The notes beneath the pieces were generated by a model, which was given only the letters and a program-made list of their open reading frames with translations, was not told the origin of the DNA and did no database searches. Below, one piece after another: positions 4,006-49,856 of a stretch of DNA of 64,000 bases (position 1 is its first letter; each line of letters starts with the position of its first letter). Source of the DNA: Alphaproteobacteria bacterium (GTDB taxonomy: Bacteria; Pseudomonadota; Alphaproteobacteria; UBA9219); contig JAQVBU010000008.1 of assembly GCA_028690155.1 (NCBI GenBank), positions 7,593 through 71,592 of the forward strand. The letters are read 5' to 3'. The position numbers and the translations under genes are program-made.

Positions 4006-5613
4006 TCAACCTCCTTTCGCCTTTTCAGCCAGCAGAGCGCGCACTTGCTTCATGACGGCGACCAACTCGTCCGAATCCGAGCGTTGAGCTTTTGTGATCT
4101 TTTCATCGACCTGAGAGAGCAGGTTCAGCGTTTCGGCAGCACTCGCCTCCTTGTCTGCCAGCATCTTGGCGTATACCAGGGGCGTGTTGCCCCAGTCGCC
4201 CTCGTAATCCTCGGAGGTTCTGCCGTACATCGTTCCAGCAAGCTCGTGCGCCTCGTTGGGCGTCATGCCTCCCGCACGCTCGATCACATTGAGAAGCTTC
4301 GCCTGATCGTCCGGGTTCGTGATGTCCGGCCCACGGAATTTGATCTCTACGAATTTGAACTGATAATCACCCAGCAGTTTCCGGTTGATGACCCAAGCCA
4401 TCTCGCGGCGCATGGGGATGAACACCTGCTTCTCCGTGATCTCCATCGCCGTCTGCGCGGTCGCTCGGTTGAAGTCGGTCGTGTATCCGACGTAAAGATC
4501 AGGCAAGAGGAAGGAGGACTGTACTTTCTTGCGCACATTGTCCAGATACCCTTGGAAGAGCTCGTCCTTTTGCAACATAGGAGACAGGTCCTTTATGGTG
4601 ACGGTCGGAGGCTTGACATCATCAAATTGGGTTTTTGCGTCTGTCAGTTCCGTCTCAAGCACCATGAATGCGTGCTGCCCGCGCTCACCTTTGATCTCGT
4701 TCATGTAGGTTTTCAGGTTGTCGAAACTCTTTTCCGACAAGGTTCCGCCCTGAATCATAATCATCATCGGCGTATGACGCCCGTTCTCGAAGTAGTTGTT
4801 GTTGAGGCGCTCCGCTTTGGCCGCGCCGTCGATCCCGAGCATCTGCCCGATCCAGCGAACCATACCATACGGTTGATCGCCAATCGGGAAGTCGATGATC
4901 TCATTGGCTTGGAAGTCGAGTTCAAGCACCTCCACGTACCGGCCGGTGCGCTTGTCCATGATGCGCGGGTCGCCGAACTCCTTGAAGTATACGGTTCTTC
5001 CGCCGACCGTCTGCTTGAACTTCCTGAACTTTTTTCTGCGGATCTGCATCTCGCCCTTGTAGTAGTACGGAACTTCGAGATACGGGTCCAGTTCGATTGT
5101 CTGCCGGACGGTTCCGGGGCGCCTGATGTTTTCGATCTGCGCGACTTCTCCGGCAAGGTTGCGGATGACCTCAACAAAGGCGATTCCGTACTTTTCGCGC
5201 GTTTCCACGATCTTGCCAAACATATCCTTGGTTTCGCAGTCGTAAGAAAGGAGATCGAGAATGCGCTGTACGCGGTTGTACTCCTCGATCATCTCCGGGC
5301 TTTCCTCTTGGTCTGAATCATCCGTGTAGTCGATACCGATCCCAAAACCCACGATATTGCCCTTGTAGGCATTGATGCACTGGGGCAGGATCGTCGAGTG
5401 CGAATATAGGACATCAAGCCCATCGAACGAGAAGGGAGGCTCTATCCAGTCTCCGGCAGTGGACTTTTCCTCCGGCTGTATGCTCGTTACATGGTCAGCC
5501 TTGGCGATCCCGCCGAGGGGCGGCTCGTTTGATTTGATGACACGAACATTCACGACCGCACCGCGCTTATCCGTTTCCTCGCTCATCTGCGCTCTCACCT
5601 CCATTTCTTCCAC
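4006..5613 (-). CDS. portal protein (SPP1 gp6-like)
   Basis: 535 aa, between TerL and the MuF-like gene. Size and position are typical of siphovirus portal proteins. Confidence 0.65.
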   Translation of the reverse strand: MEEMEVRAQMSEETDKRGAVVNVRVIKSNEPPLGGIAKADHVTSIQPEEKSTAGDWIEPPFSFDGLDVLYSHSTILPQCINAYKGNIVGFGIGIDYTDDSDQEESPEMIEEYNRVQRILDLLSYDCETKDMFGKIVETREKYGIAFVEVIRNLAGEVAQIENIRRPGTVRQTIELDPYLEVPYYYKGEMQIRRKKFRKFKQTVGGRTVYFKEFGDPRIMDKRTGRYVEVLELDFQANEIIDFPIGDQPYGMVRWIGQMLGIDGAAKAERLNNNYFENGRHTPMMIMIQGGTLSEKSFDNLKTYMNEIKGERGQHAFMVLETELTDAKTQFDDVKPPTVTIKDLSPMLQKDELFQGYLDNVRKKVQSSFLLPDLYVGYTTDFNRATAQTAMEITEKQVFIPMRREMAWVINRKLLGDYQFKFVEIKFRGPDITNPDDQAKLLNVIERAGGMTPNEAHELAGTMYGRTSEDYEGDWGNTPLVYAKMLADKEASAAETLNLLSQVDEKITKAQRSDSDELVAVMKQVRALLAEKAKGG

Positions 5614-7012
5614 GCGCCATCGCCGGCACGCAGAGCAGCATAACGCAGTCGGCCTCGTCAGGAGACACGCCGATGCGCTTTTTTACCTCGTCTTTGCTCT
5701 CGACGCGCAGCTTTGAGTTTTCCGTCATCTCGTACTTCCTCGTGGACAACTGCGCAATCAAGTCGGCATCGTTCGGCAGGATCAAGTCAACCGCCTTGGG
5801 ATTCCCTTCCTCATCCACGGTTGACAGCATGCTCTTGATTACGCCGAGCATGAACGTCGTGGAATCGTAGTAGTATGCGTGCTTGATGCGTCGCCCGAAC
5901 TGCACGGGCAGAACCTCCATCCACGCAAATCGCTTTTGATTCGCCTTTTTAATCTGCCTTAGGCGGTCCGTCACGCCGCCGCCGACACCGCCATCGTCAA
6001 TGCGGACCATGATGGTGCCCGTATACTTGTACTGGCGTATAAGATCAACGCCGAGCTCTATAATCTTGTCCGCAGTTTTCATCAGGTCTTGCCCGTTGAT
6101 CTTTAGGTGGATCGTAACATTTTCGTTGATCTTATAGGCGATGACTGTCTTATCATCGCCGAAGCGCGCCACATCGCACCCGATGTCGATCCTTATCGGG
6201 CGCTTGAGCGCGAACTGAGTTTGAACGCTTGCCTCAAGCAGCGAAAGTGGGATAAACACATCGTCCTCTTGAAGCGGAAACTCTCCATCTACGCGAACGC
6301 GAATGAAGTTCGAGTGCTTCCCGTATTTCCGCTCCATTGCCGCGATATTCTCCTTGTTAGTGCGCGGACAATCCCGAGACGAAATGTGATGTGACTGATA
6401 CACGCTCTTGTCCCGCGTGTGAGAATCATAAAAGGTCCCTCTGGTTTGCGTCGGGTTGCCGCACATGAGCAATTTGTTGTTTGGCCCTGACAGCGTGCCG
6501 AGCACCGCCTCCATGATCGGCTCCGAAACGCCGGACGCCTCGTCAATGACGAACAGCATATTGTCCTCGTGGAATCCCTGCATGTTCTCCGGCTTTGTCG
6601 CCGTTCGCGCGACCGCAAACCAACGCTTTTCATATCCCGACATATAGACGTATGTTTTCGTCCATTTCAGGATCGCCGAGAGCAGAGGGGACTTGGCGCG
6701 CCACTTCTCGATTTCCGACCAGAGAACGTCGTGCAGTTGCTGGCGTGTCGGCGCCGTACACACGACGCGAGCGTATGGGTAACATGTAAGGAACCACAAT
6801 ATGATAATGGACATGAGCGCCGTCTTGCCAACGCCCTGCCCGCTTCGCACCGTGATCCGATTGTAGTCAGCGACATCCATCATGACGCGCGCCTGGTTCT
6901 CATCGGCGTCAAAGTGTAAAAGTTCGCGCCCGAATGCCACGGGGTCATTTTTATACTTTTTCTGTACGCGCCTGAACGCCTTTACTCTGTCATTCATCAG
7001 GATCGTCTCCAT
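5567..7012 (-). CDS. terL: terminase large subunit
   Basis: Walker A SGQGVGKT and Walker B-like VIDEASGV. C-terminal nuclease-like region. Overlaps the TerS stop. Confidence 0.8.
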   Translation of the reverse strand: METILMNDRVKAFRRVQKKYKNDPVAFGRELLHFDADENQARVMMDVADYNRITVRSGQGVGKTALMSIIILWFLTCYPYARVVCTAPTRQQLHDVLWSEIEKWRAKSPLLSAILKWTKTYVYMSGYEKRWFAVARTATKPENMQGFHEDNMLFVIDEASGVSEPIMEAVLGTLSGPNNKLLMCGNPTQTRGTFYDSHTRDKSVYQSHHISSRDCPRTNKENIAAMERKYGKHSNFIRVRVDGEFPLQEDDVFIPLSLLEASVQTQFALKRPIRIDIGCDVARFGDDKTVIAYKINENVTIHLKINGQDLMKTADKIIELGVDLIRQYKYTGTIMVRIDDGGVGGGVTDRLRQIKKANQKRFAWMEVLPVQFGRRIKHAYYYDSTTFMLGVIKSMLSTVDEEGNPKAVDLILPNDADLIAQLSTRKYEMTENSKLRVESKDEVKKRIGVSPDEADCVMLLCVPAMARGRNGGESADERGNG

Positions 7013-7811
7013 TCTCGGATGACAGGAGGGCTTCTACCCATTCGTTTGCAAGCTTGCTCTGCTCGTTTTCGCCCAGCGCTCTGATGCGCTCGATTTCGAG
7101 GCGCTCGCGGTCGATCTTCATCTTGTCGAGCTGCGCAAGCACTTTGAGTTTCTTTGCTTGCGTCTTATCAAGTTCGCTTTCAAGGCGATTGAGCGCTTCC
7201 TCGACGGACGTAGTATTCGTGACGGTCGTATCCGAACGCTCGCCGTCAAAGAATCCCGTCCCTTTGTCTTTGACGAGGTTCCCGTTCTCGTCCTCCTTAA
7301 ATACGCCGTAGAGCTTTTCGGTTTTTGTCTTTGAAACGGAATTTATCATAAGGTTGCGCGTGTTCAATTGCCGCACGGATTGAATGCGCTTCATCAGCCG
7401 CAACTCCTTCGCCTTGAGGAAAGCCAGCGTGTTTTTTAGCTCGTCCTCAATGCTATCAAGCTCCGTGTCGTTCGCCACCTCGATTTCATCTTCAAACATG
7501 TGCTCGAAGGCGAACCGCTCGAACGCGCCGTGCTTCAACCGGTTTTTGTTGCCCAATGGCGCGCCGTGTCCGACAGCATTTCTATTGCCTTTTTGCCCGC
7601 CACGGCGTTTCGTTGCGCCACTTTTCGATGCTACGTCATTTGATTGCGCAACTTTATCCCACGAATCCTTTTGCTTCCAATTCCTGATTTGGGATTCCGA
7701 CACTTCGAGCCGCTTTGCGATCTCCTTGAGAAGCATCTTCTTATCGGAAGCAATCCACATGTCATATGCTTCTTTCCGCTTTGGACTCTGCGGCCTCGGC
7801 ATCACCACCAC
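6990..7811 (-). CDS. terS: terminase small subunit (HTH-containing)
   Basis: N-terminal HTH (LKEIAKRLEVSESQIRNWK) typical of TerS. Immediately upstream of TerL with an overlapping stop/start. Confidence 0.55.
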   Translation of the reverse strand: MVVMPRPQSPKRKEAYDMWIASDKKMLLKEIAKRLEVSESQIRNWKQKDSWDKVAQSNDVASKSGATKRRGGQKGNRNAVGHGAPLGNKNRLKHGAFERFAFEHMFEDEIEVANDTELDSIEDELKNTLAFLKAKELRLMKRIQSVRQLNTRNLMINSVSKTKTEKLYGVFKEDENGNLVKDKGTGFFDGERSDTTVTNTTSVEEALNRLESELDKTQAKKLKVLAQLDKMKIDRERLEIERIRALGENEQSKLANEWVEALLSSENGDDPDE

Positions 7812-7855
7812 CTCAGTTTATTCGTCAGTTCGTTTGAATCGTAGGGGCATTTTCC

Positions 7856-8377
7856 TCAGATGTTGACCGCTACTTCGGCTTTGCTATATCCGGTCACGCC
7901 TTTCGTCATCATTGCAAGGAAATCGTCCCGTGTGAAGTCAGACAACCTGAATATTTCCTCCGGCTTCATGCCGAGCTGTTTGCCAATCTCCTGTACTGTT
8001 TTCCCTTCCCCCAGCAGTTTCTTAACAATCGCCTTCATCGGTTCGAGCAAGTGCTGCCCACGCGCTCGGTTGTGGGTGATTGTGCCGTAGATGTCGTCGG
8101 CCTCGTTGTCGTGCTCCACTACAACTACGGGAACAATACCTCCAAGCCGGCTTAGAAGCGGTTCGCGCCCAGAAACCGTCCAGCGATGAAAGCCGTCAAT
8201 GATCGTCATGTCCGGCCTGACCACAAGCGGCATCGTCCACCCGTTGGTGAGAATCGACCGCGTGAGCAGTTCAAGGTTCTGCTGGCTGACCTTGTTTGGG
8301 TTGTAGTCATTCGGTTTCAGCACATCGCGGGGAACGAATTGCACGTTCCTCAACGGATACAAAAGATCGCTGTTCAT
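7856..8377 (-). CDS. ParB-like nuclease domain protein (IbrB-like)
   Basis: ParB/Srx motif IIDGFHRW and N-terminal NDYNPNK. Paired with the downstream PAPS-reductase-like gene. Confidence 0.6.
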   Translation of the reverse strand: MNSDLLYPLRNVQFVPRDVLKPNDYNPNKVSQQNLELLTRSILTNGWTMPLVVRPDMTIIDGFHRWTVSGREPLLSRLGGIVPVVVVEHDNEADDIYGTITHNRARGQHLLEPMKAIVKKLLGEGKTVQEIGKQLGMKPEEIFRLSDFTRDDFLAMMTKGVTGYSKAEVAVNI

Positions 8378-9564
8378 TGTGCTCCTTTCTGCCTGCGGGC
8401 GGCTTCCTCTGCTTCGCTTACCGCGACGAAATCATTGCGTATCGTGGCGCATACGCCGCGAAGCGAGCGCTGTTTCGTGTCACCGCTTTTCAGCGCCTCG
8501 TACATCCGTTTATAGTGCTTCGGCGTCATCATGCTCTGCAGCGAGATGTAGGAGTGCCGGTACGCTTTTGCGACCTTCTTCGCGTGAGGATTCGTGAAAA
8601 GCGTGTCGATGTTGGCGAACGTCTCGTCGAGCAGCGCCTTGTAGTCCTTCGGCGCTTCCTCGCCCTCGAGTTCCTTCCGCCGCGACGTGCGTCTATGGAA
8701 CATTTCGCTGTCCCAATACAAGAGCGCGAGGTAAGCGTTTTCTTCGCGCCGGCATATCCTGTCCATCAGCTCCGGGTAGAACTGGCTGATCGCGTTCAGG
8801 CAGCATACGGTGTCTATGGCGAAAAAGTTGCATACGCGCAGCCTGTTCTTGGACACGCCAACTTGCCACATGTACATATAGGCGACCGGCAGATCAAGGT
8901 TGCGATCCTTGATGAACATCCACACGTCAACATCCTTCCAGTCGTAAAGCGGACTGATCCGATTGTTCTTCGCGATGGAGACGTTGCCTTGATTCCCGAT
9001 CATGGCACCCATTGAGGTTGACATGTACTTCGCGCGCTGGAATGATTCCGCCATGCGCACGCCGTCTACGCTCGCGCCGTCGCCCATGTACTTTGCGAGG
9101 AAACTCTGGTAGTTCTCATTGCGCGGGTTGAGCATTGGGTGCGTCCGAACGGCAAACGGTGGAGGCGTCCTCATCCAGTTCGCTTCCTCGTACCTGTCCC
9201 AGCATACCCAGCTCTCGTCATCCACGAGCGCATGGAGGCAGTTGAAGTGCTTGACCTCGAGGCAGAACCACGTGAACTTTGCGCCGGCAAGCAGGAATAT
9301 GCTTCGCCACTTTGCGACGCTCTCGATCACGTCCTCGTACATCCCTTCCTCGTCAATGAACACCACTTCCATTTGCGCGGGATCTACTTTCCCTTCCTGT
9401 ACAAGCTCCATGACACACTGCGCGAGGCAAATGCTGTCTTTACCGCCCGAGAAGCAGATGTACACCTTCCGACCGTTGTCGAAGATGTTCTTGATGCGCA
9501 TCTTTGCGGCCGTCACGACATCAATATCAGCGGTCCTCTTGACGACCCTGCTCATCAAGCCCAC
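8374..9564 (-). CDS. PAPS reductase-like PP-loop protein with C-terminal extension (IbrA-like)
   Basis: PP-loop motif SGGKDS. About 400 aa, matching the PAPS_reduct plus DUF3440-like architecture. 4-nt overlap with the upstream ParB-like gene. Confidence 0.65.
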   Translation of the reverse strand: MGLMSRVVKRTADIDVVTAAKMRIKNIFDNGRKVYICFSGGKDSICLAQCVMELVQEGKVDPAQMEVVFIDEEGMYEDVIESVAKWRSIFLLAGAKFTWFCLEVKHFNCLHALVDDESWVCWDRYEEANWMRTPPPFAVRTHPMLNPRNENYQSFLAKYMGDGASVDGVRMAESFQRAKYMSTSMGAMIGNQGNVSIAKNNRISPLYDWKDVDVWMFIKDRNLDLPVAYMYMWQVGVSKNRLRVCNFFAIDTVCCLNAISQFYPELMDRICRREENAYLALLYWDSEMFHRRTSRRKELEGEEAPKDYKALLDETFANIDTLFTNPHAKKVAKAYRHSYISLQSMMTPKHYKRMYEALKSGDTKQRSLRGVCATIRNDFVAVSEAEEAARRQKGAQ

Positions 9565-9571
9565 CTCCTTT

Positions 9572-10249
9572 TCATATCAGGATTTTCTCCCCGCACTTCG
9601 GGCAGATCACGAACCGTCCGACCGGCGCGGTTTGCTCCTGCCCCGACGCTTCCCCGTGAACGACTTGAGCGTACTCCGCTCTTGCATGATCCGCATAGGA
9701 AGGCTGTACCGTTTCGCCGGGCGTGGGAGAATCTGCGTCCCTTTGAAGAAGCGCTTCCTTGCGCTCTGCGGCTCTGTCCAGACGGGATTTATCCTCGTCG
9801 GACATCACGCCGAACGTTTCGATCATCTTGGAAACCTGCTCCGCTTCTGCGGCAATGGTAGCAAGGATGGAATCATCAAAGCCCGGAATATCCAGCTCGC
9901 CGTCCAGCGAGAGCTCCTTGATGAACTCCTCGATCACGCTGTGGTTGTCCACACCGAGGGAGTAGATGCGGTTATCCATCGTCATGATCTTTTTCTTGTC
10001 GTTCTCGGTGGCGCCGGTTACCCGCAGCACCCATGCCTCCGTGTACTCGCTCTCCAGCATCGCGTCGAGCAAACCATTGCCCGCCAGCACGACGTTGTTC
10101 TCGTCGATGACGAGCGCCTTGATTTGGCCTGCAAACTTGAGTGAACGCACAAGCTCCGAAATCTGCTTCTGCCCGTGGATGCGCACGTTGCGCTCCGGGT
10201 GTTTAAGCAGTGTGATGTCAATCGTTTCCTCGGTTCGTTTGAGTGCCAT
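9572..10249 (-). CDS. ParB N-terminal domain-like protein with C-terminal zinc ribbon
   Basis: ParB-like N-terminal region (KALVIDENNVVLAGNGLLDA). C-terminal CPKCGEKI. Paired with a second PAPS-reductase-like gene. Confidence 0.45.
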   Translation of the reverse strand: MALKRTEETIDITLLKHPERNVRIHGQKQISELVRSLKFAGQIKALVIDENNVVLAGNGLLDAMLESEYTEAWVLRVTGATENDKKKIMTMDNRIYSLGVDNHSVIEEFIKELSLDGELDIPGFDDSILATIAAEAEQVSKMIETFGVMSDEDKSRLDRAAERKEALLQRDADSPTPGETVQPSYADHARAEYAQVVHGEASGQEQTAPVGRFVICPKCGEKILI

Positions 10250-11052
10250 CAGTACTGAATCCCCTTTCTGTCAAGGTAATCCGCGATCCGCTTGATGTGC
10301 GGAGCGGCGTTGACGAGGCATTGCACATCGATCTGTGCCACCTCGTCCATCGGCTTATCTTCGCTGTCTCCCGGATTCTGCGGGCGCTCCGGCCAGCCGC
10401 GAACCCCAAGCCCGAAGCTATCCTTGAACGGCCAGTTGTACGTCGGCGCGAATCCGAACCCGCCGTACTTCATGATCGCGAGCATCTCCATGTGCGTGTA
10501 GTCGTACATCGGGCACACCTTCTTGGTGTCTCCGTTGAAATAGACGCCACCGTCGCCCGGTTTCCCGCAGTAATTCCCGTCCTGCGTTCTGTGCCCGAGG
10601 ATAATCGCATCAAACTTGTGCGCGGCCACGTACTTGTTCCAGGCCGCTCGCTGCGGATGATACCACCGGCCGGCTTGCTTCTTGTCCTTCGGGAAAAGGA
10701 GCTCCGGGTGCTTGTTCAGGAAGTCGTACTGCAGATCGTGATTGAACACGTTCGTAAAGTCCGGCATGCTGTCATACCGCCACTTTCTGATCTCCGGGAA
10801 TTCCAGTGCGACGCCGTACTCGGACATGATCGCGTCCTTTATGCCGGCGCGGTCGCAGATGACGCGCAGCGCCTGACTGTCTTTCCCGCCAGACCATCCG
10901 AACGTCGCGTGCGTGGAGGGCGCGTGCTCCTTGATGCGCGCTACCGCCTTGTCAATCAGCCGCTCCACGTTGTCCTTGCCGACGATCTCAACAGACCGCT
11001 CGTAAGCCTCGTACCATTCCGCGGCGGGCGTTCCGAATTTCGATAACTTCAT
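10249..11052 (-). CDS. PAPS reductase family PP-loop protein
   Basis: FGWSGGKDSQAL PP-loop motif; size typical of the PAPS reductase/CysH-like family. Confidence 0.65.
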   Translation of the reverse strand: MKLSKFGTPAAEWYEAYERSVEIVGKDNVERLIDKAVARIKEHAPSTHATFGWSGGKDSQALRVICDRAGIKDAIMSEYGVALEFPEIRKWRYDSMPDFTNVFNHDLQYDFLNKHPELLFPKDKKQAGRWYHPQRAAWNKYVAAHKFDAIILGHRTQDGNYCGKPGDGGVYFNGDTKKVCPMYDYTHMEMLAIMKYGGFGFAPTYNWPFKDSFGLGVRGWPERPQNPGDSEDKPMDEVAQIDVQCLVNAAPHIKRIADYLDRKGIQY

Positions 11053-12045
11053 TCATCTGCCATCCTTTGCTTGCGAACGCTTCTCTTTCCAATGCCACGC
11101 GAGGGCGAATGCGATAGCGCCGAATACGATCCAGATGCGGATCGAACTCATGAGCGTCCACGCGCCCATAACGCCCAGCGGTATGATGAACTGCCAGAGC
11201 GCGACGGTGGCGACATTGATTGCCAGCCCCAGCCTCTTTCCGAATGTGATGTAGATGCTGTACAGGAACGATGATACCGTGGACAGCAGGGTAATCAGCA
11301 CTGCCAGAACAATGCTGAGTGCCGGAGGGAAGCGCGTCCACGAAAGCAGGAATGTGAAGATGAGGTACACCCCAAAAAGAAGCCCGCCGTTTATGAAAAC
11401 GCGGGTGATGTTGATCTTTTTCGTCCCGTCCCCGTTCTGCTCGTTGTAGTCGAGCATCTCGAAAAAATACGGGTAGAGGAAAGGACCCGGCAGCAGGAGA
11501 ACGCACTTTTCGATCCCGATGCCTATTTGATCGGCGCCCATCGTCAGGGGGATCATGTTTCCCCTGGAGTAGATCATGGCCAGAACCGTCAATAGGAGGG
11601 CGATGGCATAAACGCCAATCCACGCCGCATAATCCGAGAGCACGGTGCGGATCATCCCGTTTCTCCATAGCATGATGATGAAGCCTATGGCAATGGCATA
11701 GGCCAGCGCCATCCCAAAAACGCCGGTCAAAGGCGTGTCATCAAATATGGACTGGATGCCGTTGAGATTTGTCCACACCTGGAACACGCACATGAAACCG
11801 ACGAGATAGTGCATGATTCGGCTTCTGAACACCTCGCGCAGTTTCGGGATGCGCGGCGCGAAGATTCCGAACAGAATGCAGGCGATCGTGTTCCCGAACG
11901 CCCAGAGCAAAAACGGTATGATGCCGTAATCGCGAGCCATCTGCATCCCGACCATGAGCGCCCCGACGCCCGCCCACGTTGATGCGATGGACATGGAGTA
12001 GTATAGCGAAGGATTGCGTTTGAAGCGTGAGCCCGCAGATTGCAT
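11053..12045 (-). CDS. polytopic membrane protein (about 10 TM), possible transporter
   Basis: Repeated long hydrophobic segments throughout. Start at 12045 is the most plausible Met. Sits directly downstream of the ParB/PAPS pairs. Confidence 0.45.
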   Translation of the reverse strand: MQSAGSRFKRNPSLYYSMSIASTWAGVGALMVGMQMARDYGIIPFLLWAFGNTIACILFGIFAPRIPKLREVFRSRIMHYLVGFMCVFQVWTNLNGIQSIFDDTPLTGVFGMALAYAIAIGFIIMLWRNGMIRTVLSDYAAWIGVYAIALLLTVLAMIYSRGNMIPLTMGADQIGIGIEKCVLLLPGPFLYPYFFEMLDYNEQNGDGTKKINITRVFINGGLLFGVYLIFTFLLSWTRFPPALSIVLAVLITLLSTVSSFLYSIYITFGKRLGLAINVATVALWQFIIPLGVMGAWTLMSSIRIWIVFGAIAFALAWHWKEKRSQAKDGR

Positions 12046-12248
12046 TGTGTTCCTCCCTGTGCATACAAAAAAGCGGCCCATGTTGGCCGCTTTTGCGCTT
12101 TTTGCTGCATACAGTATAGCACCCTGCGGAATGCCCTGTCAACGCCCAATAAATGCCCTTATTAGGGGCTTTAATTTAAGGCTATGGTTTCCTTTAGGAG
12201 CATCCGAAACGCGGCGGCAGGGGCGCACTGGCGCCGGCAGCGTACCCT

Positions 12249-12941
12249 CTACTCCGTGAGCCGCCCGCCACCGATGGCGTCAATGCCAAACAGGAGCGCC
12301 GTTACGCATTCGACCGCCGCGTCGAGGTCTTTATCAACCGTCCTTGGGTGAATATGTTCCCGGTCAGCGATGGCGTTTACGGACATCGGTTCTTCTATGA
12401 GGTATTTCGCGTTGAGCACGCGGTATTGCCGTTTTACGCTTTGCATGGGGGATTTGTCACAATAAGCCGCGTAAATATCCAGCATTCGCTCGATGTGCCG
12501 TAGGATAATCATCGTGCGCATTGCTGACCGCTTGATGCTGTCTATGTAAACTTCCTCATTCCTGATGGAACGATTCAGCATATCCCATATCTCGCCCGGA
12601 GCCGGCTCGTCGTCTTGGGTTGCGATTTCATACACGGCACTCTCGCAATGCGCCTTCAAACTGTTGTAGTTTCTGAGCAGGAGGCGCGTATTGTACATAC
12701 GGCGATCCATCGCCTTGGCCTTTTCTTTTTTGCGGATATTCACCCGTTCCTTTTCCACGGCATGTGCGCCGGCGCGCGTCGCCTCGGCGACAACGCTCTC
12801 GATGGTTTGCTTCATGGCTCCATCGGCGCACTTGTCGATCATGGATAGCGCGGTGATCGCTCCAGTTTCCGCGGCGAGTTTCACAACCTCTTGGATCGTC
12901 ATGTTGGTCACCCCCATTCCCACACACTGCATCGTTTTCAA
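12249..12941 (-). CDS. putative late-gene transcriptional regulator (C-terminal sigma-70 region-4-like HTH)
   Basis: C-terminal HTH-like segment REHIHPRTVDKDLDAAVECVTALLFG. Position upstream of the packaging module. Confidence 0.3.
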   Translation of the reverse strand: MKTMQCVGMGVTNMTIQEVVKLAAETGAITALSMIDKCADGAMKQTIESVVAEATRAGAHAVEKERVNIRKKEKAKAMDRRMYNTRLLLRNYNSLKAHCESAVYEIATQDDEPAPGEIWDMLNRSIRNEEVYIDSIKRSAMRTMIILRHIERMLDIYAAYCDKSPMQSVKRQYRVLNAKYLIEEPMSVNAIADREHIHPRTVDKDLDAAVECVTALLFGIDAIGGGRLTE

Positions 12942-13693: not shown

Positions 13694-14399
13694 TCGGGCA
13701 GCATGTCGCGGTATATCTCGCAGTCGTACCCGGATAACATAATCATGCTGTCGCTCGCATTGAGCGCATTGAGCAACTCCACGTGATCGTCATCGCTCAT
13801 TTCGTGCCTGTATTGATCCCGGTGCGCCGTTCTGGATCGTCTGACATAGGGGGGTCAACATACATGAGCAAGTCCGTGCCGCTCATTCGGTTGATGAGTT
13901 CAAGCGCCGGTCTGTTCTCGATCTGGACGCTCATGAGCCGGCTTGCCACGGCGGTGATGCGTTCCGGCAGGTTCATCCAAAGCTTTGGGTTGTCCGGCCC
14001 GCTGTTCATCTGCTTCCCGGTCGTATTCCTCCATCCTGTCTTTTTGCTCATGCAACTTCCGAATGCCATCCAAGAACGGACGAGAAACCTCCGCGCTGCT
14101 TCCACGTCATCCACCTCGTTTTCATCGTCGAATTCAGCCATGTCATATTCCATTCGCGCCCACGGCGTGAGGGATACGACCCTCGCCAATTCGTCCGGAT
14201 GGTTTCTGCAGGTGCGGAAGAACCGCACGATGGCGCCGTCCAGATCGTTTACCGTTTCGATGCGCGACGGCCTCTTGTTGAGCAGGACCGCGAGGCTGCC
14301 GGCGTATGGTTCCAGGTACCCGACATGCGGCGGCATGCTCTCGATGATCCACCCAGCGATCCTCCACTTTGCCCCCGGATACTTTAAGATGGGCTGCAC
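13576..14399 (-). pseudogene. dam: Dam-like N6-adenine DNA methyltransferase (D12 class) interrupted by a -1 frameshift in a G6/C6 homopolymer
   Basis: N-terminal KYPGAKWRIAGWI (motif I). The upstream ORF ends ...DPPM-SDDPERR...K*. Adding one C at 13849-13854 restores DPPY and fuses in frame to the downstream 74-aa ORF, which carries the Dam C-terminal region. Confidence 0.6.
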
Positions 14400-16018: not shown

Positions 16019-16267
16019 CTAGCGCTTGCGTTTTGTCTCGACCGCACTTCCCTTTGCTTCGGCCTCGAGCGTCTTTACCGCCTCAGTTACGTCCTCGTTT
16101 GTGTACCCGAGGTGGAGAATCATAGCGCATACCCCATACCACACGGCAACCAACTTCCTGAACAGAACCTGCCGCACTGCCTTCTTCTTGATGTTGGCAC
16201 GCTTGATGACCACGATCGTATGGATCTCCGACATGGCGTTGATGGTCGAATTGATCAGCTTATCCAT
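16019..16267 (-). CDS. hypothetical small protein
   Basis: 82-aa ORF with one hydrophobic segment. Confidence 0.2.
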   Translation of the reverse strand: MDKLINSTINAMSEIHTIVVIKRANIKKKAVRQVLFRKLVAVWYGVCAMILHLGYTNEDVTEAVKTLEAEAKGSAVETKRKR

Positions 16268-16800
16268 TTTTCCTGCCTTTCTCCACCATTGACGAGCCTC
16301 GTTTTGCGAAGAATCTTGCTTACCGCCCCTTGGGTGATTCCATACTTGGAGGCGATAACAACCTGCTTGTGCCCAAGCGCATAGAGCCGTGCAACTTCGC
16401 CTCGCTCGGCGTCGCTCAGTTTCGCGTTCGGGTTTTTCTCTCCGACAGTGGCGGTCCCAGCGTTGTACTTATCGCACCAATTCTCGTATGCCGACCCGTA
16501 TTCCAAGTTCTCGATTCTGTTGTCGTGGCTATCGCCGTTCAAATGCCGTACCTGCATACCGGCACGCGGAGGCTTGCCGTTGAATGCAGCGCACACGAGG
16601 GAGTGCACATTCACCGTAACATACGTCATGTCCCTTCTCATGAGGCTCACGGTTTCGTACTTGCCTCCCGAGTGCTTCTTGACAGGGGCGACCTTGATGT
16701 GCATCCGGCCTTCAATGATCTCGCTATCGACCACGCTGTAGATGCCGCCATCGCTTCCGGCATAGTATCCGCAGTACTCGTCCAGTTTTACATATCGCAT
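16255..16800 (-). CDS. HNH homing endonuclease (NUMOD4 + HNH_3)
   Basis: YCGYYAGSDGGIYS (NUMOD4-like) and VHSLVCAAFNGKPPRAGMQVRHLNGDSHDNRIENLE (HNH). Start ATG at 16800. Confidence 0.7.
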   Translation of the reverse strand: MRYVKLDEYCGYYAGSDGGIYSVVDSEIIEGRMHIKVAPVKKHSGGKYETVSLMRRDMTYVTVNVHSLVCAAFNGKPPRAGMQVRHLNGDSHDNRIENLEYGSAYENWCDKYNAGTATVGEKNPNAKLSDAERGEVARLYALGHKQVVIASKYGITQGAVSKILRKTRLVNGGERQEKWIS

Positions 16801-16859
16801 GGCGTACCTCCCATATCGCTCACACGCTTCGTAATTCCCCCGGCGATCTTGCCGCCTGC

Positions 16860-17081
16860 TCACTTGTATATCTTTCCCGTCGCTCTGTCCCGCACCTCGA
16901 TGCGGCACAATAGATCAAACCCCGCAAGGTCTATTATGCCTTTTAGCGCCCTGATAAGCTGCATTGGACGCTGATCTGCCTCGCTCTGTCGGTCGTGCGC
17001 TCGCATCACGTTTGACAAGGCACTGTGGGCCGTTGGGTCGAGATAGCCTTCTGCGTTGCGAATCGGTATCCTGTCAGCCAT
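16860..17081 (-). CDS. hypothetical protein
   Basis: 73-aa ORF. Confidence 0.25.
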   Translation of the reverse strand: MADRIPIRNAEGYLDPTAHSALSNVMRAHDRQSEADQRPMQLIRALKGIIDLAGFDLLCRIEVRDRATGKIYK

Positions 17082-23173: not shown

Positions 23174-23483
23174 GGAGCTGATTTAGTGAGCGCTTTGCAT
23201 TGCCCTCCGTATCCTCCCAGTAGTTGTCGGATACATCGTCTCCGAGCTGGGCTATCCCGGCCTTGAGGACGGAGATGCTTTCCGCTCCGGTCATCCCATA
23301 GATCGTTCTAATGCCCTCGTTGCCGAAGATGCGGCGGAATAACTTCCCGTAATTGTAGGTGATGTTCAGCCATGCTTCCGTGGTGCCGTCCACGGCGTAA
23401 GTTCCTCCGCGCATTGCGTGCGGAGAATCAAGCATGATCGTTTCCTTGGTGACGGGGTTGCGCAGGGAGATGTCGTAGCTCAT
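23127..23483 (-). CDS. hypothetical phage protein
   Basis: 118-aa ORF. Confidence 0.3.
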   Translation of the reverse strand: MSYDISLRNPVTKETIMLDSPHAMRGGTYAVDGTTEAWLNITYNYGKLFRRIFGNEGIRTIYGMTGAESISVLKAGIAQLGDDVSDNYWEDTEGNAKRSLNQLLALAQMRPDGVWDGD

Positions 23484-24067
23484 GTTCTCCTTCTTTCCCG
23501 GCAGTTTGCCCCCTCGGCGGTGCTGCCGCAGTGATTCCAGTCATCCCATTGGTAGTTGAATCCATCCAGCGCGTACGGATTCTTGATTTTGTTGTTGCAC
23601 CGATCCATTACGGTTTGATAACTCATATGGTTCTGCGCTGCCGCCTCTCTTGCCGACCGATAGACCTCCGCAACCTCTCCGCTCTCAAAAATCTTTGCAA
23701 CGGGACGCCGCCTCGATTTATGCCCGGTCATTTCCCCAAGCTCTCTCGGGGTAATGAATCCAATATTCGCGGCTCGATTGTCCGTTGTGTCTCCGTTGAT
23801 GTGGTAGGCAACCATTCCGGGTGGCCGACCGCCCTTCCAAACGTCCACTACGATGTTTACAAGTGGGACCTCGCGCGCCCTGCCATTTTGATCTGTGAGC
23901 TTCACGAAAACGCGGTTGCTTCGGCGTCCCTTGCCCCGAGGTTGTCTTTTGTAGGGCGTAAGCAGTCTGGATGAAGGAAGCCTACCCCAGCAGCTTCGAT
24001 AACTTCTTACCTCGCCCAATCTACTGACCTCGTAGAAACCGCCGTACCCTGCAATCATGCGCCACTC
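23480..24067 (-). CDS. HNH homing endonuclease (NUMOD4 + HNH_3)
   Basis: MEWRMIAGYGGFYEVSRLGEVRS (NUMOD4) and AYHINGDTTDNRAANIGFITPRE (HNH). Confidence 0.65.
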   Translation of the reverse strand, partial: EWRMIAGYGGFYEVSRLGEVRSYRSCWGRLPSSRLLTPYKRQPRGKGRRSNRVFVKLTDQNGRAREVPLVNIVVDVWKGGRPPGMVAYHINGDTTDNRAANIGFITPRELGEMTGHKSRRRPVAKIFESGEVAEVYRSAREAAAQNHMSYQTVMDRCNNKIKNPYALDGFNYQWDDWNHCGSTAEGANCRERRRT

Positions 24068-24137
24068 CATAGCAACCGGAATCCTCCTTTCTTCGTAGGT
24101 CGAGATCGCCGGGCCGTAGTTTGATCCCCGGAGCCCC

Positions 24138-24554
24138 TTATAGCCCGTCGTCGCAAGCCCCACCCTCCAGCACGTTTTTTAGCGCATAGATAATGGTGTA
24201 GTCAAGGATGCTGATTTTTTTGGGATCGTGCTCCTGTCTGAATTTCAGCTTCATCATTTCGCTGCGAAGCGCGGCTTGTACCTTGATCCGCTCAAGCGGA
24301 TTCTCCATGTCCATCTCTCCGGCCTCGAGCAGAAGCTTGTTCTCTTGCAGCTTTTCCAGCGCCGCCTCCAATTCGGCTCGGATTCGGATGATGTCCTCCG
24401 GCATCAAGCCGGTGTCCTCGTAGGCGGCGAGGCGTTCCGGCGCAAATCCAGTAATAGTTTCGTCTTTCGTAAACGGATCGTTGTAATTGAAATGATTCGC
24501 GCCGATTCTGGCGAGTCCAAATTCTCCCGGATCGCGGTATGTCAGCCTATCCAT
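24138..24554 (-). CDS. hypothetical protein; shares the LAAYEDTGLMPEDI motif with the 59297 gene
   Basis: Start at Met 26. The motif also occurs at 59297-60466. Confidence 0.3.
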   Translation of the reverse strand: MDRLTYRDPGEFGLARIGANHFNYNDPFTKDETITGFAPERLAAYEDTGLMPEDIIRIRAELEAALEKLQENKLLLEAGEMDMENPLERIKVQAALRSEMMKLKFRQEHDPKKISILDYTIIYALKNVLEGGACDDGL

Positions 24555-25346: not shown

Positions 25347-27305
25347 TCACATCTGACCGACACCGAGCAGGAGTTGTTGATTGTGGGCCACAAGATAGTA
25401 ATCGGCATTCTCCATGATTCGCTCATACTGCTCCTTCCCTTGAAAACTATCAACAACCTCGCGTTCTTCCGGGGTCATCTGCTCATACCGCGCTTTCCCG
25501 TAATTCGGGGGGAGCCAGTTCCGGCCGCGCGCAGCGTAGATATTGAGTAGGTCAACCATGCGCTGATCGTGGAAGGAGATGTGGCATGTTCCCTTCTTGA
25601 AGAATGTCGCGTTGAAATACTTGAAGGCGATGTTCCGCGTCTGCCCTGCTGCATTGGCCGTCTTGAGAACTACGTGCATATCGCTCTCCGCTGTAACTCC
25701 CTGGTCCAAGTAGTCAAGGGATTTTTCGATATCTCCAAGCACGCCGTATATCGTGTACTCTGCGAGTTTCTCACCTTGCCAAGAATCAGAATGGCTGCCG
25801 TGGATGGGGATAATGACTTTCTTACCGATCTTGTGCGCCTTATTTGTCGCCCATCCGCTGTAGTAGTGGATGTTGTTCTTTGTCTCCGGCCACCATGAGT
25901 GGGCGGCAGTCATCTTCTCAAACACGTCCATGATTGCCTTATCAATGCCTGTTCGCAGCGAGCCATCCAGTTTTCCGATGATCTGGCGGATGTTGAATTC
26001 CGAGAATTCGTAATCCTCCATTTTACCGATGCTGGATTGATACTCTTTCATCAGGTCGCTTGTGAACTTGCTTGTGAGTTGCGGCAGGTGAAAAAGATTG
26101 TCCCAGTACTTTCCACGCACGGCGCGCATATAGCGGTTTACGCCTTCGTTGTCAATCGTGTCGTAGGATTGATCTCCGATCTTTATGGAGAGCAGTGCGT
26201 GTGCGTAAGACTGGCTGCCTGTCAGGATATACGGCACCAGGCCATTGTACTCACTCATAAACTCAAGTGTCGCGGACACCTCCACGCCGTAGTTGGTTAT
26301 CATCTGCTCAATGAAGTTGCCCCCGACAAGCTCGTGCTTGGAATCCGCCTGCACCGTTTGTTCTGTCGCTTTCTTCATGCGCTCGAATATGCTGGAATCA
26401 AACTCGCGCATCGGAATGTGGACAGACACGATTGCGACCTCCACATCGGAGCGGCGTTCCGCCCGGAGGAAAGCGCCCTTGATGAATTGAATCCGTGCGC
26501 CCAACTTTGTGAGACGGTCGAACAAATGCTTGCGTCTGACTGTATGCGGGTTGCGCAGCGTTTCGGCGTTCAGCAGGCAGACGATCTGGCCTCCGTCTTG
26601 CTGGATTTCGAGTGCCTTTTCCAAATGCCGGTCACCATCAGAGAAGGGCGGGTTCATCACGATCAAGTCGTATCGTTTTTGCGTGTGATACGTCAGGAAG
26701 TCGTCGTGGACAACGCGGTATCCCTTTCCGGTGAGTATGTAACGCAGATTTTGATCCATTTCGATGCAGTCGATGTCTTCAAGATTGCGGGAATAACGCT
26801 GGCGCTTATAGGTCGCGCTTCCCATACACTCAAGTAAGTCACCTTTTCCGGCTGACGGCTCGAGTACTGAACGCACTACCTTCCAGTCAACCATAGCCAT
26901 CATCTTTCCGGCCAGCGCAGAGGGGGTCGGGTAGAAGTCGGAATTGTCTCCGCTGGGCAGCATGGCCGGATCGTACTTTTGCTTCTCCGGTTTTGCGTTT
27001 TCTTTCCATTTTTTGAACACCCCGGTTTTCGCTGCATATAGAGTATCGAAGCTCCCAGCGTGTTCCCCGCGCTCATCCCCGTTCCTTTCGTAATACCTCG
27101 CAGAATACGGATGTGTATTCCATAAATCGACTTTATTCATGTCAATCCTACCAATCCGATTGCCGCGGTAATTTACATGAATGAAGCGCTGTAGCGATAG
27201 GCCTCGTTTCGACTTTGTCTGGATAACTTCGACTTCGATGCTTGGATGCTTGATGTCAAAAGTCTTTCCACTGCGCTCTTGGGTGTTTATCCTCAACGCA
27301 TTCAA
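25347..27305 (-). CDS. N6-adenine DNA methyltransferase (gamma class, TaqI-like) with a ~350 aa C-terminal extension
   Basis: FYPTPSALAGKMM (motif X), VLEPSAGKGDLLE (motif I), IVMNPPF (motif IV). Confidence 0.7.
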   Translation of the reverse strand: MNALRINTQERSGKTFDIKHPSIEVEVIQTKSKRGLSLQRFIHVNYRGNRIGRIDMNKVDLWNTHPYSARYYERNGDERGEHAGSFDTLYAAKTGVFKKWKENAKPEKQKYDPAMLPSGDNSDFYPTPSALAGKMMAMVDWKVVRSVLEPSAGKGDLLECMGSATYKRQRYSRNLEDIDCIEMDQNLRYILTGKGYRVVHDDFLTYHTQKRYDLIVMNPPFSDGDRHLEKALEIQQDGGQIVCLLNAETLRNPHTVRRKHLFDRLTKLGARIQFIKGAFLRAERRSDVEVAIVSVHIPMREFDSSIFERMKKATEQTVQADSKHELVGGNFIEQMITNYGVEVSATLEFMSEYNGLVPYILTGSQSYAHALLSIKIGDQSYDTIDNEGVNRYMRAVRGKYWDNLFHLPQLTSKFTSDLMKEYQSSIGKMEDYEFSEFNIRQIIGKLDGSLRTGIDKAIMDVFEKMTAAHSWWPETKNNIHYYSGWATNKAHKIGKKVIIPIHGSHSDSWQGEKLAEYTIYGVLGDIEKSLDYLDQGVTAESDMHVVLKTANAAGQTRNIAFKYFNATFFKKGTCHISFHDQRMVDLLNIYAARGRNWLPPNYGKARYEQMTPEEREVVDSFQGKEQYERIMENADYYLVAHNQQLLLGVGQM

Positions 27306-27332: not shown

Positions 27333-28223
27333 TTAGAAGATCAGGCTGCCTGGATCGTCCCACCGGCTATAAAGCTTACAGTTTGGCCGGAGTATCACAT
27401 ACTTGTACGAGTCCGAAACATCCTGAGCCATGCAGTCATCGTCAATGACGGTGGACATCCCGAGAATCGAATACTTTACGCGTCCGTACTCAAGCCTTTC
27501 GAGCGCGCGCCCTTCTTCCTTGACGTACTCGATCAGTTGCGATTCGGTCTTATCGGCAATCGAATGCTTGCGAATCCATTCAGCCTGTTCCGTTTCGCCG
27601 TCCCCGGTATACAGGATTCGGAGCGTTACTTGGTCAGCGCCGAGAAGCCTGCAATATGTAAAGAACTTCTCGGGCTTGTTGCTGTATCCGTTGAACTGAT
27701 CGGTGAGATTCACGGAAAGCCTCAGGTTGAAGTCGTATTTTTTGATCGCCTGACACAAGCTTTCAAGACAAACTTGGTGTTTATCAGGGGTTCCGATAAT
27801 CTCGTTGTTCGACCCGTTATCAAACGACGAAATCGAAACACTGATCGTACTCACCCCTACATGGTTTCGCAAAAACCGAAGATACGGGTCGTTGAGCATG
27901 ACACCCGTAGTCTGCATCTCAATCCACCGAAACGGTGAAGGGAGATTTTTGTTCATCGTACCGAACCGCTGCAAGAAGGACCTATTTTGTTGCGGCTCGC
28001 TGTCGCCCGTGAGCATGACCGTGTTGCAGCCATTGTCCCGGGCGAATTCCAACCGGCGAACATAGTCCGCTTCATATAGGTCGTAGAACGGGAGCTTCTC
28101 GTCAAGCATGTTCGGATACTCGTCGTGGCGCATTCTCGAAACGCAGAATTGGCATTTGTTGATGCAGCCGCTGCTCGGTACGACAATCGACAGGCTCTGA
28201 ATCTTCACGGTCGCACCTCCCAC
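27333..28223 (-). CDS. radical SAM protein
   Basis: GCINKCQFCVS CX3CX2C motif near the N-terminus; LTGDSEP as a GGE-like motif. Confidence 0.55.
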   Translation of the reverse strand: MGGATVKIQSLSIVVPSSGCINKCQFCVSRMRHDEYPNMLDEKLPFYDLYEADYVRRLEFARDNGCNTVMLTGDSEPQQNRSFLQRFGTMNKNLPSPFRWIEMQTTGVMLNDPYLRFLRNHVGVSTISVSISSFDNGSNNEIIGTPDKHQVCLESLCQAIKKYDFNLRLSVNLTDQFNGYSNKPEKFFTYCRLLGADQVTLRILYTGDGETEQAEWIRKHSIADKTESQLIEYVKEEGRALERLEYGRVKYSILGMSTVIDDDCMAQDVSDSYKYVILRPNCKLYSRWDDPGSLIF

Positions 28224-28981
28224 GGATATTCTTGCTTGAAATCAGACCCCATCAAATCACGGATAGAGGACTTCATAAAGACCGCGACCTTTTTTTCGGC
28301 GCAAGCTTCAACGATCTCGTCAATCCACCACTTCTCCGGAACGACTTTATTCTTCCGCGGCCCGGTTTCGGCTCCAACGATCACCCATTCCGGCCAATAT
28401 TCGGTTTCCATCTCCCCGAACGGTTCTAGGATAGGTTCGATGCTGACGAATCCGTGGTATGGCGTATCCCTGAACCATGTGAAGTTGTCGTCCGGCGATG
28501 TGAGTGTAGAGCCGAACCAAAAGTTGTCGGCATAAGGGAGCGCTTTGGCTGAGTACAGTTCCCGAATGCGCATCGGGTTCTTTGTCAAAAACAGATACCG
28601 ATGCCACGGTGCCGCGGCGCACGCGGTGAAAACATCCTGAATCCACTCGTCAGGAACCCACGAACCGAACAAATCTGTCATTGAGCCGACGAAGATGGTG
28701 CGCGGCTCGGACCACTTCGCAGGGATTCCGAGGCGGTAGCGATGGAAGGTCGGCGCAAATCCAAACGGGTAATGGTTGATACGCCCGCGCGCGATTTCCC
28801 CGCACTCGGTTCCCGTGACCAGATCCCGGTATGGTTCGTCCAGCTCGCGCAAATCATCGTCCATCGTGGCTTTGCCGAACCGATTTACATGCCTCCGCGC
28901 GTAGCAGTATTCGCAGCCGTGGAGACAGCCCGTGACAGGGTTCCATGAACTGTCACACCAGTCAATCTTCGTTTTATACAT
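28205..28981 (-). CDS. phage Gp37/Gp68 family protein (DUF5131), three-Cys motif
   Basis: IDWCDSSWNPVTGCLHGCEYCYA matches the hallmark TWNPVTGC..GC.YCYA N-terminus. Confidence 0.65.
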   Translation of the reverse strand: MYKTKIDWCDSSWNPVTGCLHGCEYCYARRHVNRFGKATMDDDLRELDEPYRDLVTGTECGEIARGRINHYPFGFAPTFHRYRLGIPAKWSEPRTIFVGSMTDLFGSWVPDEWIQDVFTACAAAPWHRYLFLTKNPMRIRELYSAKALPYADNFWFGSTLTSPDDNFTWFRDTPYHGFVSIEPILEPFGEMETEYWPEWVIVGAETGPRKNKVVPEKWWIDEIVEACAEKKVAVFMKSSIRDLMGSDFKQEYPWEVRP

Positions 28982-46249: not shown

Positions 46250-46325
46250 TGCCGCCGTAGCTCAATTGGCAGAGCGCTGGTCTTCCAAACCGGTTGTTAC
46301 GGGTTCGATCCCCGTCGACGGCTCC
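46250..46325 (+). tRNA. tRNA-Gly (anticodon UCC)
   Basis: Cloverleaf: acceptor GCCGCCG, D-arm GCTC-AATTGGCA-GAGC, anticodon loop CTTCCAA, T-loop TTCGATC, discriminator T, encoded CCA; one A-C mismatch in the acceptor stem. Confidence 0.7.
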
Positions 46326-49739: not shown

Positions 49740-49856
49740 GGCGGTGTAGCTCAATTGGGAGAGCATCTAAGGTGCTTCGGTGAAGCGCGTACAGCAATCC
49801 CCTATTGGACTGTTAATCCGAGGATGCGGGTTCGATCCCCGCCGCCGCCACTCTCA
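49740..49856 (+). tRNA. tRNA-Asn(GUU)-like gene with a 39-nt hairpin insertion between the D-arm and anticodon stem (possible pseudo-tRNA or intron-bearing)
   Basis: Acceptor GGCGGTG/CGCCGCC, D-arm GCTC-AATTGGGA-GAGC, anticodon arm TTGGA-CTGTTAA-TCCGA, T-arm GCGGG-TTCGATC-CCCGC. Extra GCTTC-GGT-GAAGC hairpin at 49766-49804. Confidence 0.45.

Follow-up and report, generated by a model that had tools for sequence, protein, structure and literature searches.

IbrA and IbrB, named after proteins of E. coli ECOR-9 and annotated as "co-activator of prophage gene expression" in the Faecalibacterium phage FP_Taranis and in Streptococcus thermophilus phages, combine a PP-loop enzyme of the PAPS_reduct family, extended by a C-terminal helical part, with a small neighboring ParB/Srx protein carrying a DGxHR motif and a helix-turn-helix (HTH). 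Here, we describe such a pair in a 64,000-nt stretch of contig JAQVBU010000008.1 (positions 7,593 to 71,592, forward strand; referred to as the window), which contains a prophage. In this locus, however, the pair belongs to a larger cassette next to the terminase genes, which encodes one further ParB-like protein, one further PP-loop enzyme and a transporter of its own. In biochemical terms, the name IbrA/IbrB explains little.

The closest "works-like" model is provided by the DNA phosphorothioation systems with DndB/DndC, SspD and the BrxP of type-4 BREX, where an ATP pyrophosphatase of the PAPS (3'-phosphoadenosine-5'-phosphosulfate) reductase family and the ParB-like DndB modify DNA. These systems are host defense islands without an importer, whereas the cassette of the window is phage-encoded, late-expressed and equipped with one, and it lacks their partners cysteine desulfurase, DndD/E, SspB/C and PglZ. 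The phrog_498 family of phage proteins, likewise commonly encoded near terS, carries an N-terminal ParB-like domain that is matched by both ParB-like proteins of the cassette; in the latter, this domain is a separate protein and its partner is a PP-loop ATPase instead of an S-adenosylmethionine-dependent methyltransferase. Some phages with a 7-deazaguanine pathway also carry the precursor transporter YhhQ. In the DpdA/DpdB system of that pathway, a ParB-like NTPase (DpdB) assists the DNA-modifying enzyme DpdA, with DndB-DndC as a parallel (PMC12839542). The likeness to our locus lies in this assisting role, but a TGT-like transglycosylase and QueC/D/E are missing here, and PAPS-reductase-type PP-loop enzymes and a LeuT/SSS-type transporter are found instead. 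The transporter finally resembles the sodium:solute symporters (SSS/SLC5; e.g., SiaT, PutP, PanF, and CHT1) in its LeuT fold and by remote homology, although it comprises only about 330 aa compared to about 460–580 aa for the SSS proteins of sister phages.

In the following, we describe the locus as a late-operon cassette that is conserved among temperate Clostridia phages and assembled around a widespread phage triplet. Its best reading, to which we assign a probability of roughly 0.4, is that phage DNA is covalently modified with an imported solute, at the expense of ATP, before it is packaged.

Results

A phage triplet with two tightly linked additions

The cassette consists of five tightly packed open reading frames (ORFs), given here in the order of transcription:

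11053..12045, minus strand: transporter, a minimal LeuT-fold membrane protein of 330 aa
10249..11052, minus strand: PP267, a 267-aa PP-loop ATP pyrophosphatase of the PAPS-reductase superfamily
9572..10249, minus strand: ParB2, a 225-aa ParB/Srx-like protein (phrog_620)
8374..9564, minus strand: IbrA-like PP-loop enzyme of 396 aa (PF01507, phrog_2302)
7856..8377, minus strand: IbrB-like ParB/Srx protein of 173 aa (PF02195, phrog_2159)

These coordinates and the ParB and PAPS-reductase domain calls had been proposed in an earlier note made from the sequence alone, and both were confirmed by the ORFs and by PHROG and Pfam matches. The stop codon of the transporter gene adjoins the start of PP267, PP267 and ParB2 overlap by 1 nt, and the start of IbrB overlaps the stop of IbrA by 4 nt, an arrangement of abutting and overlapping neighbors which fits a single transcript.

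The same note had grouped the genes as a tandem duplication of two ParB/PAPS-reductase pairs and had considered the arrangement unusual. Neither view holds. The natural unit is the core triplet ParB2-IbrA-IbrB, to which PP267 (optional) and the transporter are tightly linked add-ons, and the arrangement is shared by over 100 distinct IMG/VR loci from metagenomic phages. When loci were collected with the transporter as seed (n = 20), the triplet followed directly downstream wherever the contig allowed, with PP267 between transporter and ParB2 in seven of them. Seeding with an IbrA profile (n = 80) recovered a recurring order of HTH protein, transporter, PP267, ParB2, IbrA-IbrB or IbrB-IbrA, terS, terL and portal, in which PP267 was present in roughly half of the loci. 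All 80 viral loci seeded with a PP267 profile placed PP267 inside the cassette, and 78 of them contained a transporter (67 SSS, 11 minimal form), the other two lying at contig ends without one. PP267 thus occurs essentially only inside this cassette. After removal of duplicates, 134 distinct loci remained, 107 of which carry a transporter in the same slot:

57 loci: SSS, PP267 and ParB2
19 loci: minimal transporter and PP267 (type of the window)
19 loci: minimal transporter and ParB2, without PP267 (type of FP_Taranis)
9 loci: SSS and ParB2, without PP267
3 loci: ABC-type transporter and ParB2
12 loci: IbrA-IbrB only (distant clade)
15 loci: transporter not seen, or cut at the contig end

The triplet was found in phages of Firmicutes, Bacteroidota and Actinobacteria, and the pairing with ParB-like proteins is kept in related phages. 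Phage vB_RanS_PJN03 has the core triplet without any transporter; in the Arthrobacter phage Laroye, a methyltransferase gene and then terS come after the triplet, and gp4, encoded 5' of the triplet, is not a membrane protein. A distantly related contig shows the different order ParB-IbrA-IbrB-PP267. Among cultured phages, the Faecalibacterium phages FP_Taranis and Pioen encode a four-gene version composed of transporter, ParB2, IbrA and IbrB. Within 50,697 GenBank phage records, the minimal transporter occurred only in these two and in one metagenomic record, and PP267 only in one unannotated fecal contig; megablast of the region against GenBank phages gave no match. Isolated phages of Flavobacterium, Mycobacterium, Streptococcus and Arthrobacter commonly carry IbrA-like genes, so the IbrA/IbrB pair itself is ordinary and already annotated. 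For the extended cassette with importer, second PP-loop enzyme and near-obligate linkage, we found no description in the literature beyond annotations and a reading as sulfur genes, and the jumbo-phage paper of the Aravind laboratory does not mention the system.

Genomes with the minimal transporter are mostly metagenome-assembled genomes (MAGs) of Clostridia (Oscillospiraceae, Dysosmobacter, and Sedimentibacter), joined by two Treponema MAGs. Clostridia hosts are also indicated by RecU, by the PF10668-type terS and by every close relative of the cassette. The Alphaproteobacteria label of the source, whose NCBI entries PHS57_05835/05840 on a 94.9-kb contig are identical proteins, is probably a binning or taxonomy error.

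Three types of importer occupy one slot

The strongest functional clue of this analysis is the occurrence of three transporter types in one slot. The membrane protein of the window, predicted in the earlier note as a putative transporter with about ten transmembrane segments, indeed has a LeuT fold with a 10-helix core, and SSS members are among its top structural matches. At the profile level, it is a remote homolog of the SSS proteins found in its place in sister phages, although no Pfam domain, including SSF (PF00474), was detected in it. Judged by these comparisons, it is remotely related to these sodium:solute symporters and shortened relative to them. It has at least 723 relatives and represents the most conserved gene of the cassette: in the same loci, its identity amounts to 58–82%, compared to 43–47% for IbrA, 36–41% for ParB2 and about 32% for PP267.

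In loci without the 330-aa protein, a gap of about 1.5 kb located 5' of PP267 or ParB2 is filled by a sodium:solute symporter of 460–580 aa. Representatives (loci L025, L033, and L068) match PF00474 at E 1e-22 to 3e-26 as well as TIGR00813, with weak similarity to PanF and PutP. In those loci with the order IbrB-IbrA, the SSS gene and PP267 are separated by the gene of a conserved, secreted protein with a length of about 200 aa (42 loci, namely L068 at 4497-5105 and 41 others). It features a signal peptide, a beta-rich pattern and, in two of nine members, a weak Porin_2 match. In Gram-negative hosts, it may act as the outer-membrane channel through which the same solute passes.

The third type consists of a permease (PF00528) of the ATP-binding cassette (ABC) family and an NMT1/THI5-type lipoprotein, encoded directly 5' of ParB2-IbrA-IbrB in L047 (29-1536), L049 (4630-6422) and L060 (2052-3789). 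The binding protein is closest to SsuA, TauA and SaoX, all below threshold (107–115 vs. 163.5 bits), and the permease is closest to TauC and SaoP. No ATPase gene is present beside these genes in the three loci, so that the phage would have to borrow an ABC ATPase of the host. With three non-orthologous import systems in one position, the cassette appears to need an external solute.

Both PP-loop enzymes retain their catalytic motifs

The IbrA-like protein matches PF01507 (PAPS_reduct; E 2e-9) and phrog_2302 (E 6e-78). Its SGGKDS loop (residues 39–44) is invariant in an alignment of 12/12 diverse homologs, together with FxDEE, the CysD/CysH-type motif GxRxxESxxR, PxYDWxxxDVW and a single cysteine, C101. 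The DUF3440-like C-terminal helical extension is conserved as well, with an invariant GDxKxR motif in the 12 homologs. PF11922 (DUF3440) does not match the protein of the window even at E 0.1, but it aligns end-to-end with homologs that do match (two of 12; L004), and GDxKxR is common to both. The best match among solved structures is CysD; by sequence, no solved structure was found for either IbrA or the membrane protein. One match, to the designed helical protein 9mg8, was judged spurious.

PP267 carries WSGGKDS and GxRxxDGN, which are kept across diverse homologs without any conserved cysteine. Its SGGxDS loop lies on an adenine-nucleotide alpha-hydrolase fold, and the PP-loop fold is assigned with confidence. 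For the PP-loop enzymes, the highest-ranking matches by structure and by sequence include CysD and FAD synthase. SGGKDS and the catalytic motif are thus intact in both proteins, neither of which has a cysteine cluster or a CxxC motif. An exhaustive protein search yielded 336 relatives of PP267, compared to two in a word-indexed search. Two apparent fusions, P0181 (N-terminal half of PP267 with IbrB) and P0228 (C-terminal half of an SSS protein with PP267), were set aside as Rosetta-stone evidence, as they probably represent deletion or assembly products.

A profile comparison of the two enzymes gave a probability of 97.5% (E 7e-12, 14% identity), and BLASTP aligned the PP-loop alone (E 0.4). 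Similarity at the profile level alone identifies them as ancient paralogs and not as products of a recent duplication; the two ParB-like proteins are barely alignable at all (E 0.004; profile and BLASTP comparisons). The likeness of the first pair to IbrB/IbrA was substantiated, with 75% identity of IbrB to FP_Taranis gp38 (annotated IbrB) and 44% identity of IbrA to gp37 (annotated IbrA). IbrA furthermore matches "IbrA" of the S. thermophilus phage CHPC1230 at E 3e-17. The comparison covered annotated phage proteins.

The ParB-like proteins resemble the N-terminal part of phage ParB-methyltransferase fusions

IbrB matches PF02195 (E 4.9e-6) and phrog_2159 (E 1e-69), keeps the motifs DGFHRW and HNRARG and ends in an HTH with a weak match to sigma-70 region 4. 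ParB2 was recognized by PHROGs only (phrog_620, E 6e-32), without a Pfam match. Both match the N-terminal ParB-like part of the ParB-methyltransferase family phrog_498 (E 1e-18 for ParB2 and 5e-14 for IbrB), and IbrB also matches the PADLOC model MTase_II.

Within the ParB2 family, AGNGL replaces the usual arginine box, accompanied by a KKK patch and a C-terminal CPxCG. The earlier note had assigned a zinc ribbon to this protein, of which one C-terminal CPxC knuckle stands; as C216 and C219 are its only cysteines, a complete ribbon can be discarded.

A function as partition ParB was rejected for both proteins. TIGR00180 scores 25.9 bits for IbrB (cut-off 58.45) and does not match ParB2, and in place of the GERRxRA arginine box of partition proteins IbrB has DGFHRW and ParB2 AGNGL without an arginine. 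No ParA was found among the scanned ORFs, and no convincing parS-like clustered inverted repeats in 7700-12400, in a search that was not exhaustive.

The cassette opens the packaging operon

The cassette is framed by the following elements:

12249..12941, minus strand: 230-aa protein with a C-terminal HTH-like segment (phrog_1558), context outside the cassette
12113..12142, minus strand: sigma-70-type promoter 5' of the transporter gene, near-consensus TTGACA-18-TATACT (11/12 matches, TG extension)
12069..12094, minus strand: strong intrinsic-terminator hairpin, 10-bp stem followed by TTTTTTGT
6990..7811, minus strand: terS, terminase small subunit (PF10668), 44 nt 3' of IbrB
5567..7012, minus strand: terL, terminase large subunit, overlapping terS
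4006..5613, minus strand: portal, following terL

The position of terS shows that the cassette stands at the start of the packaging/late operon. A leader of 200 nt separates the gene of the 230-aa HTH protein from the transporter gene. In this leader, the terminator hairpin follows the promoter by about 18 nt, ahead of the ribosome-binding site and ATG of the transporter. The order of promoter and then terminator, within about 20–30 nt, is also seen in FP_Taranis (L001, 5084-5170) and L009 (2816-2897); the three phages sharing it are diverged, and L061 does not show this layout. The layout is reminiscent of late operons controlled by Q-type or processive antitermination, and it puts the cassette first among the late products, synthesized along with the packaging machinery. 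The 230-aa protein occupies the slot of the RinA-like late activator of FP_Taranis, which makes it a candidate late-gene regulator, i.e., a candidate antiterminator or activator. A riboswitch that could name the substrate of the transporter was not recovered, as no Rfam family matched upstream of it in the window or in five related loci. Across phages, the cassette stands upstream of at least eight unrelated terL clusters and is consequently not tied to one packaging mechanism.

Gene calls and further features of the prophage

A longer transporter ORF (to 12081) has no support from homologs or from the gene call in the identical contig, and the IbrA-like gene has an alternative ATG start at 9555. 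Exactly antisense to PP267 lies another 267-aa ORF (10243-11046, plus strand), and similarly long antisense ORFs cover IbrA and portal. None of these has a homolog-supported reading, and they are probably a by-product of GC-rich codon usage.

Elsewhere in the same prophage, conventional DNA methylation is already provided for by a Dam methyltransferase of the D12 class (13797-14399) and by a 652-aa methyltransferase with DUF4942 (25347-27305). The gene of a radical SAM protein (27333-28223) overlaps that of a DUF5131 ("Gp37/Gp68") protein (28205-28981), and a DUF5131 protein is also found just 5' of the cassette in locus L030. Two HNH_3 endonuclease ORFs (16255-16908 and 23480-24163), one of them with a NUMOD4 motif, may be homing endonucleases inside the early/replication region. 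Three tRNA genes on the plus strand (46251-46323, 47606-47680, and 49740-49850) lie beyond a strand switch at about 40 kb, possibly in a host flank or the prophage attachment region.

Discussion

A role in DNA modification, already raised in the earlier note, remains the best reading of the cassette. In the proposed sequence of events, the product of the first gene, a LeuT-fold/SSS-type transporter, would take up a small polar solute from the surrounding medium. In the reactions of PP-loop enzymes, an oxygen (of a carboxylate, carbonyl, sulfate or phosphate) is adenylated, after which a nucleophile displaces AMP, and such an adenylated intermediate is the universal chemistry of the PAPS-reductase-type fold. 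IbrA and PP267 would use ATP to form this intermediate, and its site would be the solute itself or else a phosphate or carbonyl oxygen of the DNA. IbrB, via its HTH, and ParB2, via its likeness to the DNA-loading domain of methyltransferase fusions, would bring the enzymes onto replicated phage DNA, which would be covalently modified just before terminase packaging and could thereby be protected in the next host. DNA as the target, the transported solute as the attached group and protection as the purpose are the parts of this model which we infer.

Several lines of evidence support DNA modification. These comprise the importer, the late expression beside the terminase, the chemistry of the PP-loop and the recurrence of ParB-like domains beside DNA-modifying enzymes (phrog_498, MTase_II, the Laroye methyltransferase, DndB-DndC, and DpdB-DpdA), together with the linkage of transporter, PP267 and triplet across loci, the retention of catalytic residues in both enzymes across diverse homologs and the location upstream of at least eight unrelated terL clusters. 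A number of points weigh against it. The cassette holds no nucleic-acid-specific domain of the TGT, glycosylase or nickase type, and its enzymes could also act on a small molecule or a protein. ParB2 may be catalytically inert, as the arginine of its NTP-binding box is missing, and in S. thermophilus phages a distant IbrA-IbrB pair follows the lysis genes and does not stand beside terS. Furthermore, Sandt and colleagues reportedly observed in 2002 that IbrAB of E. coli raised the expression of prophage eib genes, the sole experimental datum for the family. The more specific proposal of a previously unknown phage DNA hypermodification, in which two PAPS-reductase-type PP-loop enzymes, positioned by the two ParB-like proteins, would join an imported metabolite to base or backbone via an adenylated intermediate before packaging, is somewhat less probable still.

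The eib datum, as well as the annotation in FP_Taranis and the S. thermophilus phages, would be accommodated if IbrA, IbrB and ParB2 jointly activated the expression of late or prophage genes and the PP-loop enzyme served as an accessory subunit or one that senses a cofactor; ParB-like proteins could, for example, load on DNA and change transcription or antitermination. The HTH of IbrB with its weak sigma-70 region-4-like match, and the vicinity of a candidate late activator and a promoter-proximal terminator, are in line with this. We nevertheless consider it unlikely, since the cassette lies 3' of the late promoter and terminator and is hence a late product and not a switch, dedicated late activators (RinA-like, phrog_1558) are already there, and strictly conserved catalytic residues in two enzymes as well as three importers are hard to square with a transcription factor.

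A role in sulfur metabolism is improbable, be it as an auxiliary metabolic gene (AMG) for CysH/CysD-like assimilation of sulfate or sulfonate, fed by imported organosulfur, or as a Dnd/Ssp-like phosphorothioation of phage DNA. Both enzymes do belong to the PAPS_reduct superfamily, with a CysD/CysH-type motif and CysD as best solved structure in the case of IbrA, and the ABC variant has its nearest relatives among sulfonate/taurine binding proteins (SsuA/TauA) and the permeases TauC and SaoP. Moreover, viral "PAPS reductase / cysH", among the most abundant AMGs of viromes and especially of the human gut, is widely read as a sulfur AMG (bioRxiv 10.1101/2021.01.05.425418). However, the profile scores stay far below the cut-offs for true CysH (APS_reductase 16.5 vs. 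235 bits; PRK02090 14.9 vs. 154 bits) and for CysD (32 vs. 195 bits), neither enzyme contains ECG[LI]H, and the matches of the ABC binding protein are themselves sub-threshold. Membership in DndC, to which the earlier note had drawn a likeness along with DndB and SspD, was likewise rejected: TIGR03183 reaches 21.3 bits against a cut-off of 290 and the PADLOC DndC model 23 bits over about 60 residues, PP267 gives no match, and a cysteine dyad or other iron-sulfur ligands are lacking, with C101 as the one invariant cysteine of IbrA and none in PP267. SspD gave no PADLOC match, and BrxP 30.8 bits over residues 167–231 only. The sulfur-relay partner suggested as a check was not found either, as no cysteine desulfurase (DndA), DndD or DndE is encoded in the cassette, its neighbors or the ten largest other prophage ORFs (smaller ORFs were not all scanned). 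Finally, the obligate linkage to two ParB-like proteins beside terS is unlike a metabolic AMG.

Even less probable is an accessory role in packaging, by which the ParB-like proteins, as nucleases, nickases or DNA organizers, would aid the terminase in recognizing or cutting concatemers in the manner of terminase-adjacent HNH proteins. The cassette immediately adjoins terS in most loci and the DGxHR motif of IbrB is typical of ParB-like nuclease domains, but some phages carry the genes away from terS, many related phages package without the cassette, the terL clusters downstream are unrelated, and two PP-loop enzymes and an importer would be left unexplained. Just as little weight can be given to the synthesis or destruction of a nucleotide-like metabolite that alters host physiology or defense signaling, since true adenylyltransferases within the PAPS-reductase fold (with CysD and FAD synthase among the top matches), sulfiredoxin-type phosphotransferases within the ParB/Srx fold, which could make these proteins NTP-dependent enzymes, and a transporter belonging to the cassette are set against the HTH of IbrB, the likeness of ParB2 to DNA-binding domains of methyltransferase fusions and an expression alongside packaging genes, which is late for host takeover.

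Regarding the biology of these phages, the PAPS-reductase-like proteins of the cassette fail all CysH tests and are linked, beside the terminase genes, to ParB-like proteins, a further PP-loop enzyme and an importer, so part of the viral sulfur signal is probably something else. If the proposed hypermodification were true, many of the "cysH/PAPS reductase AMGs" of gut viromes would be DNA-modification genes and not genes of sulfur metabolism. Three interchangeable importers constitute a strong genomic argument for the use of an external small molecule. Among phage late genes, such a use would be without precedent, and it might come with a novel chemistry of DNA modification. With FP_Taranis and Pioen, cultured Faecalibacterium phages are at hand in which the question can be tested, and the answer would give the long-orphaned IbrA/IbrB family a biochemical function.

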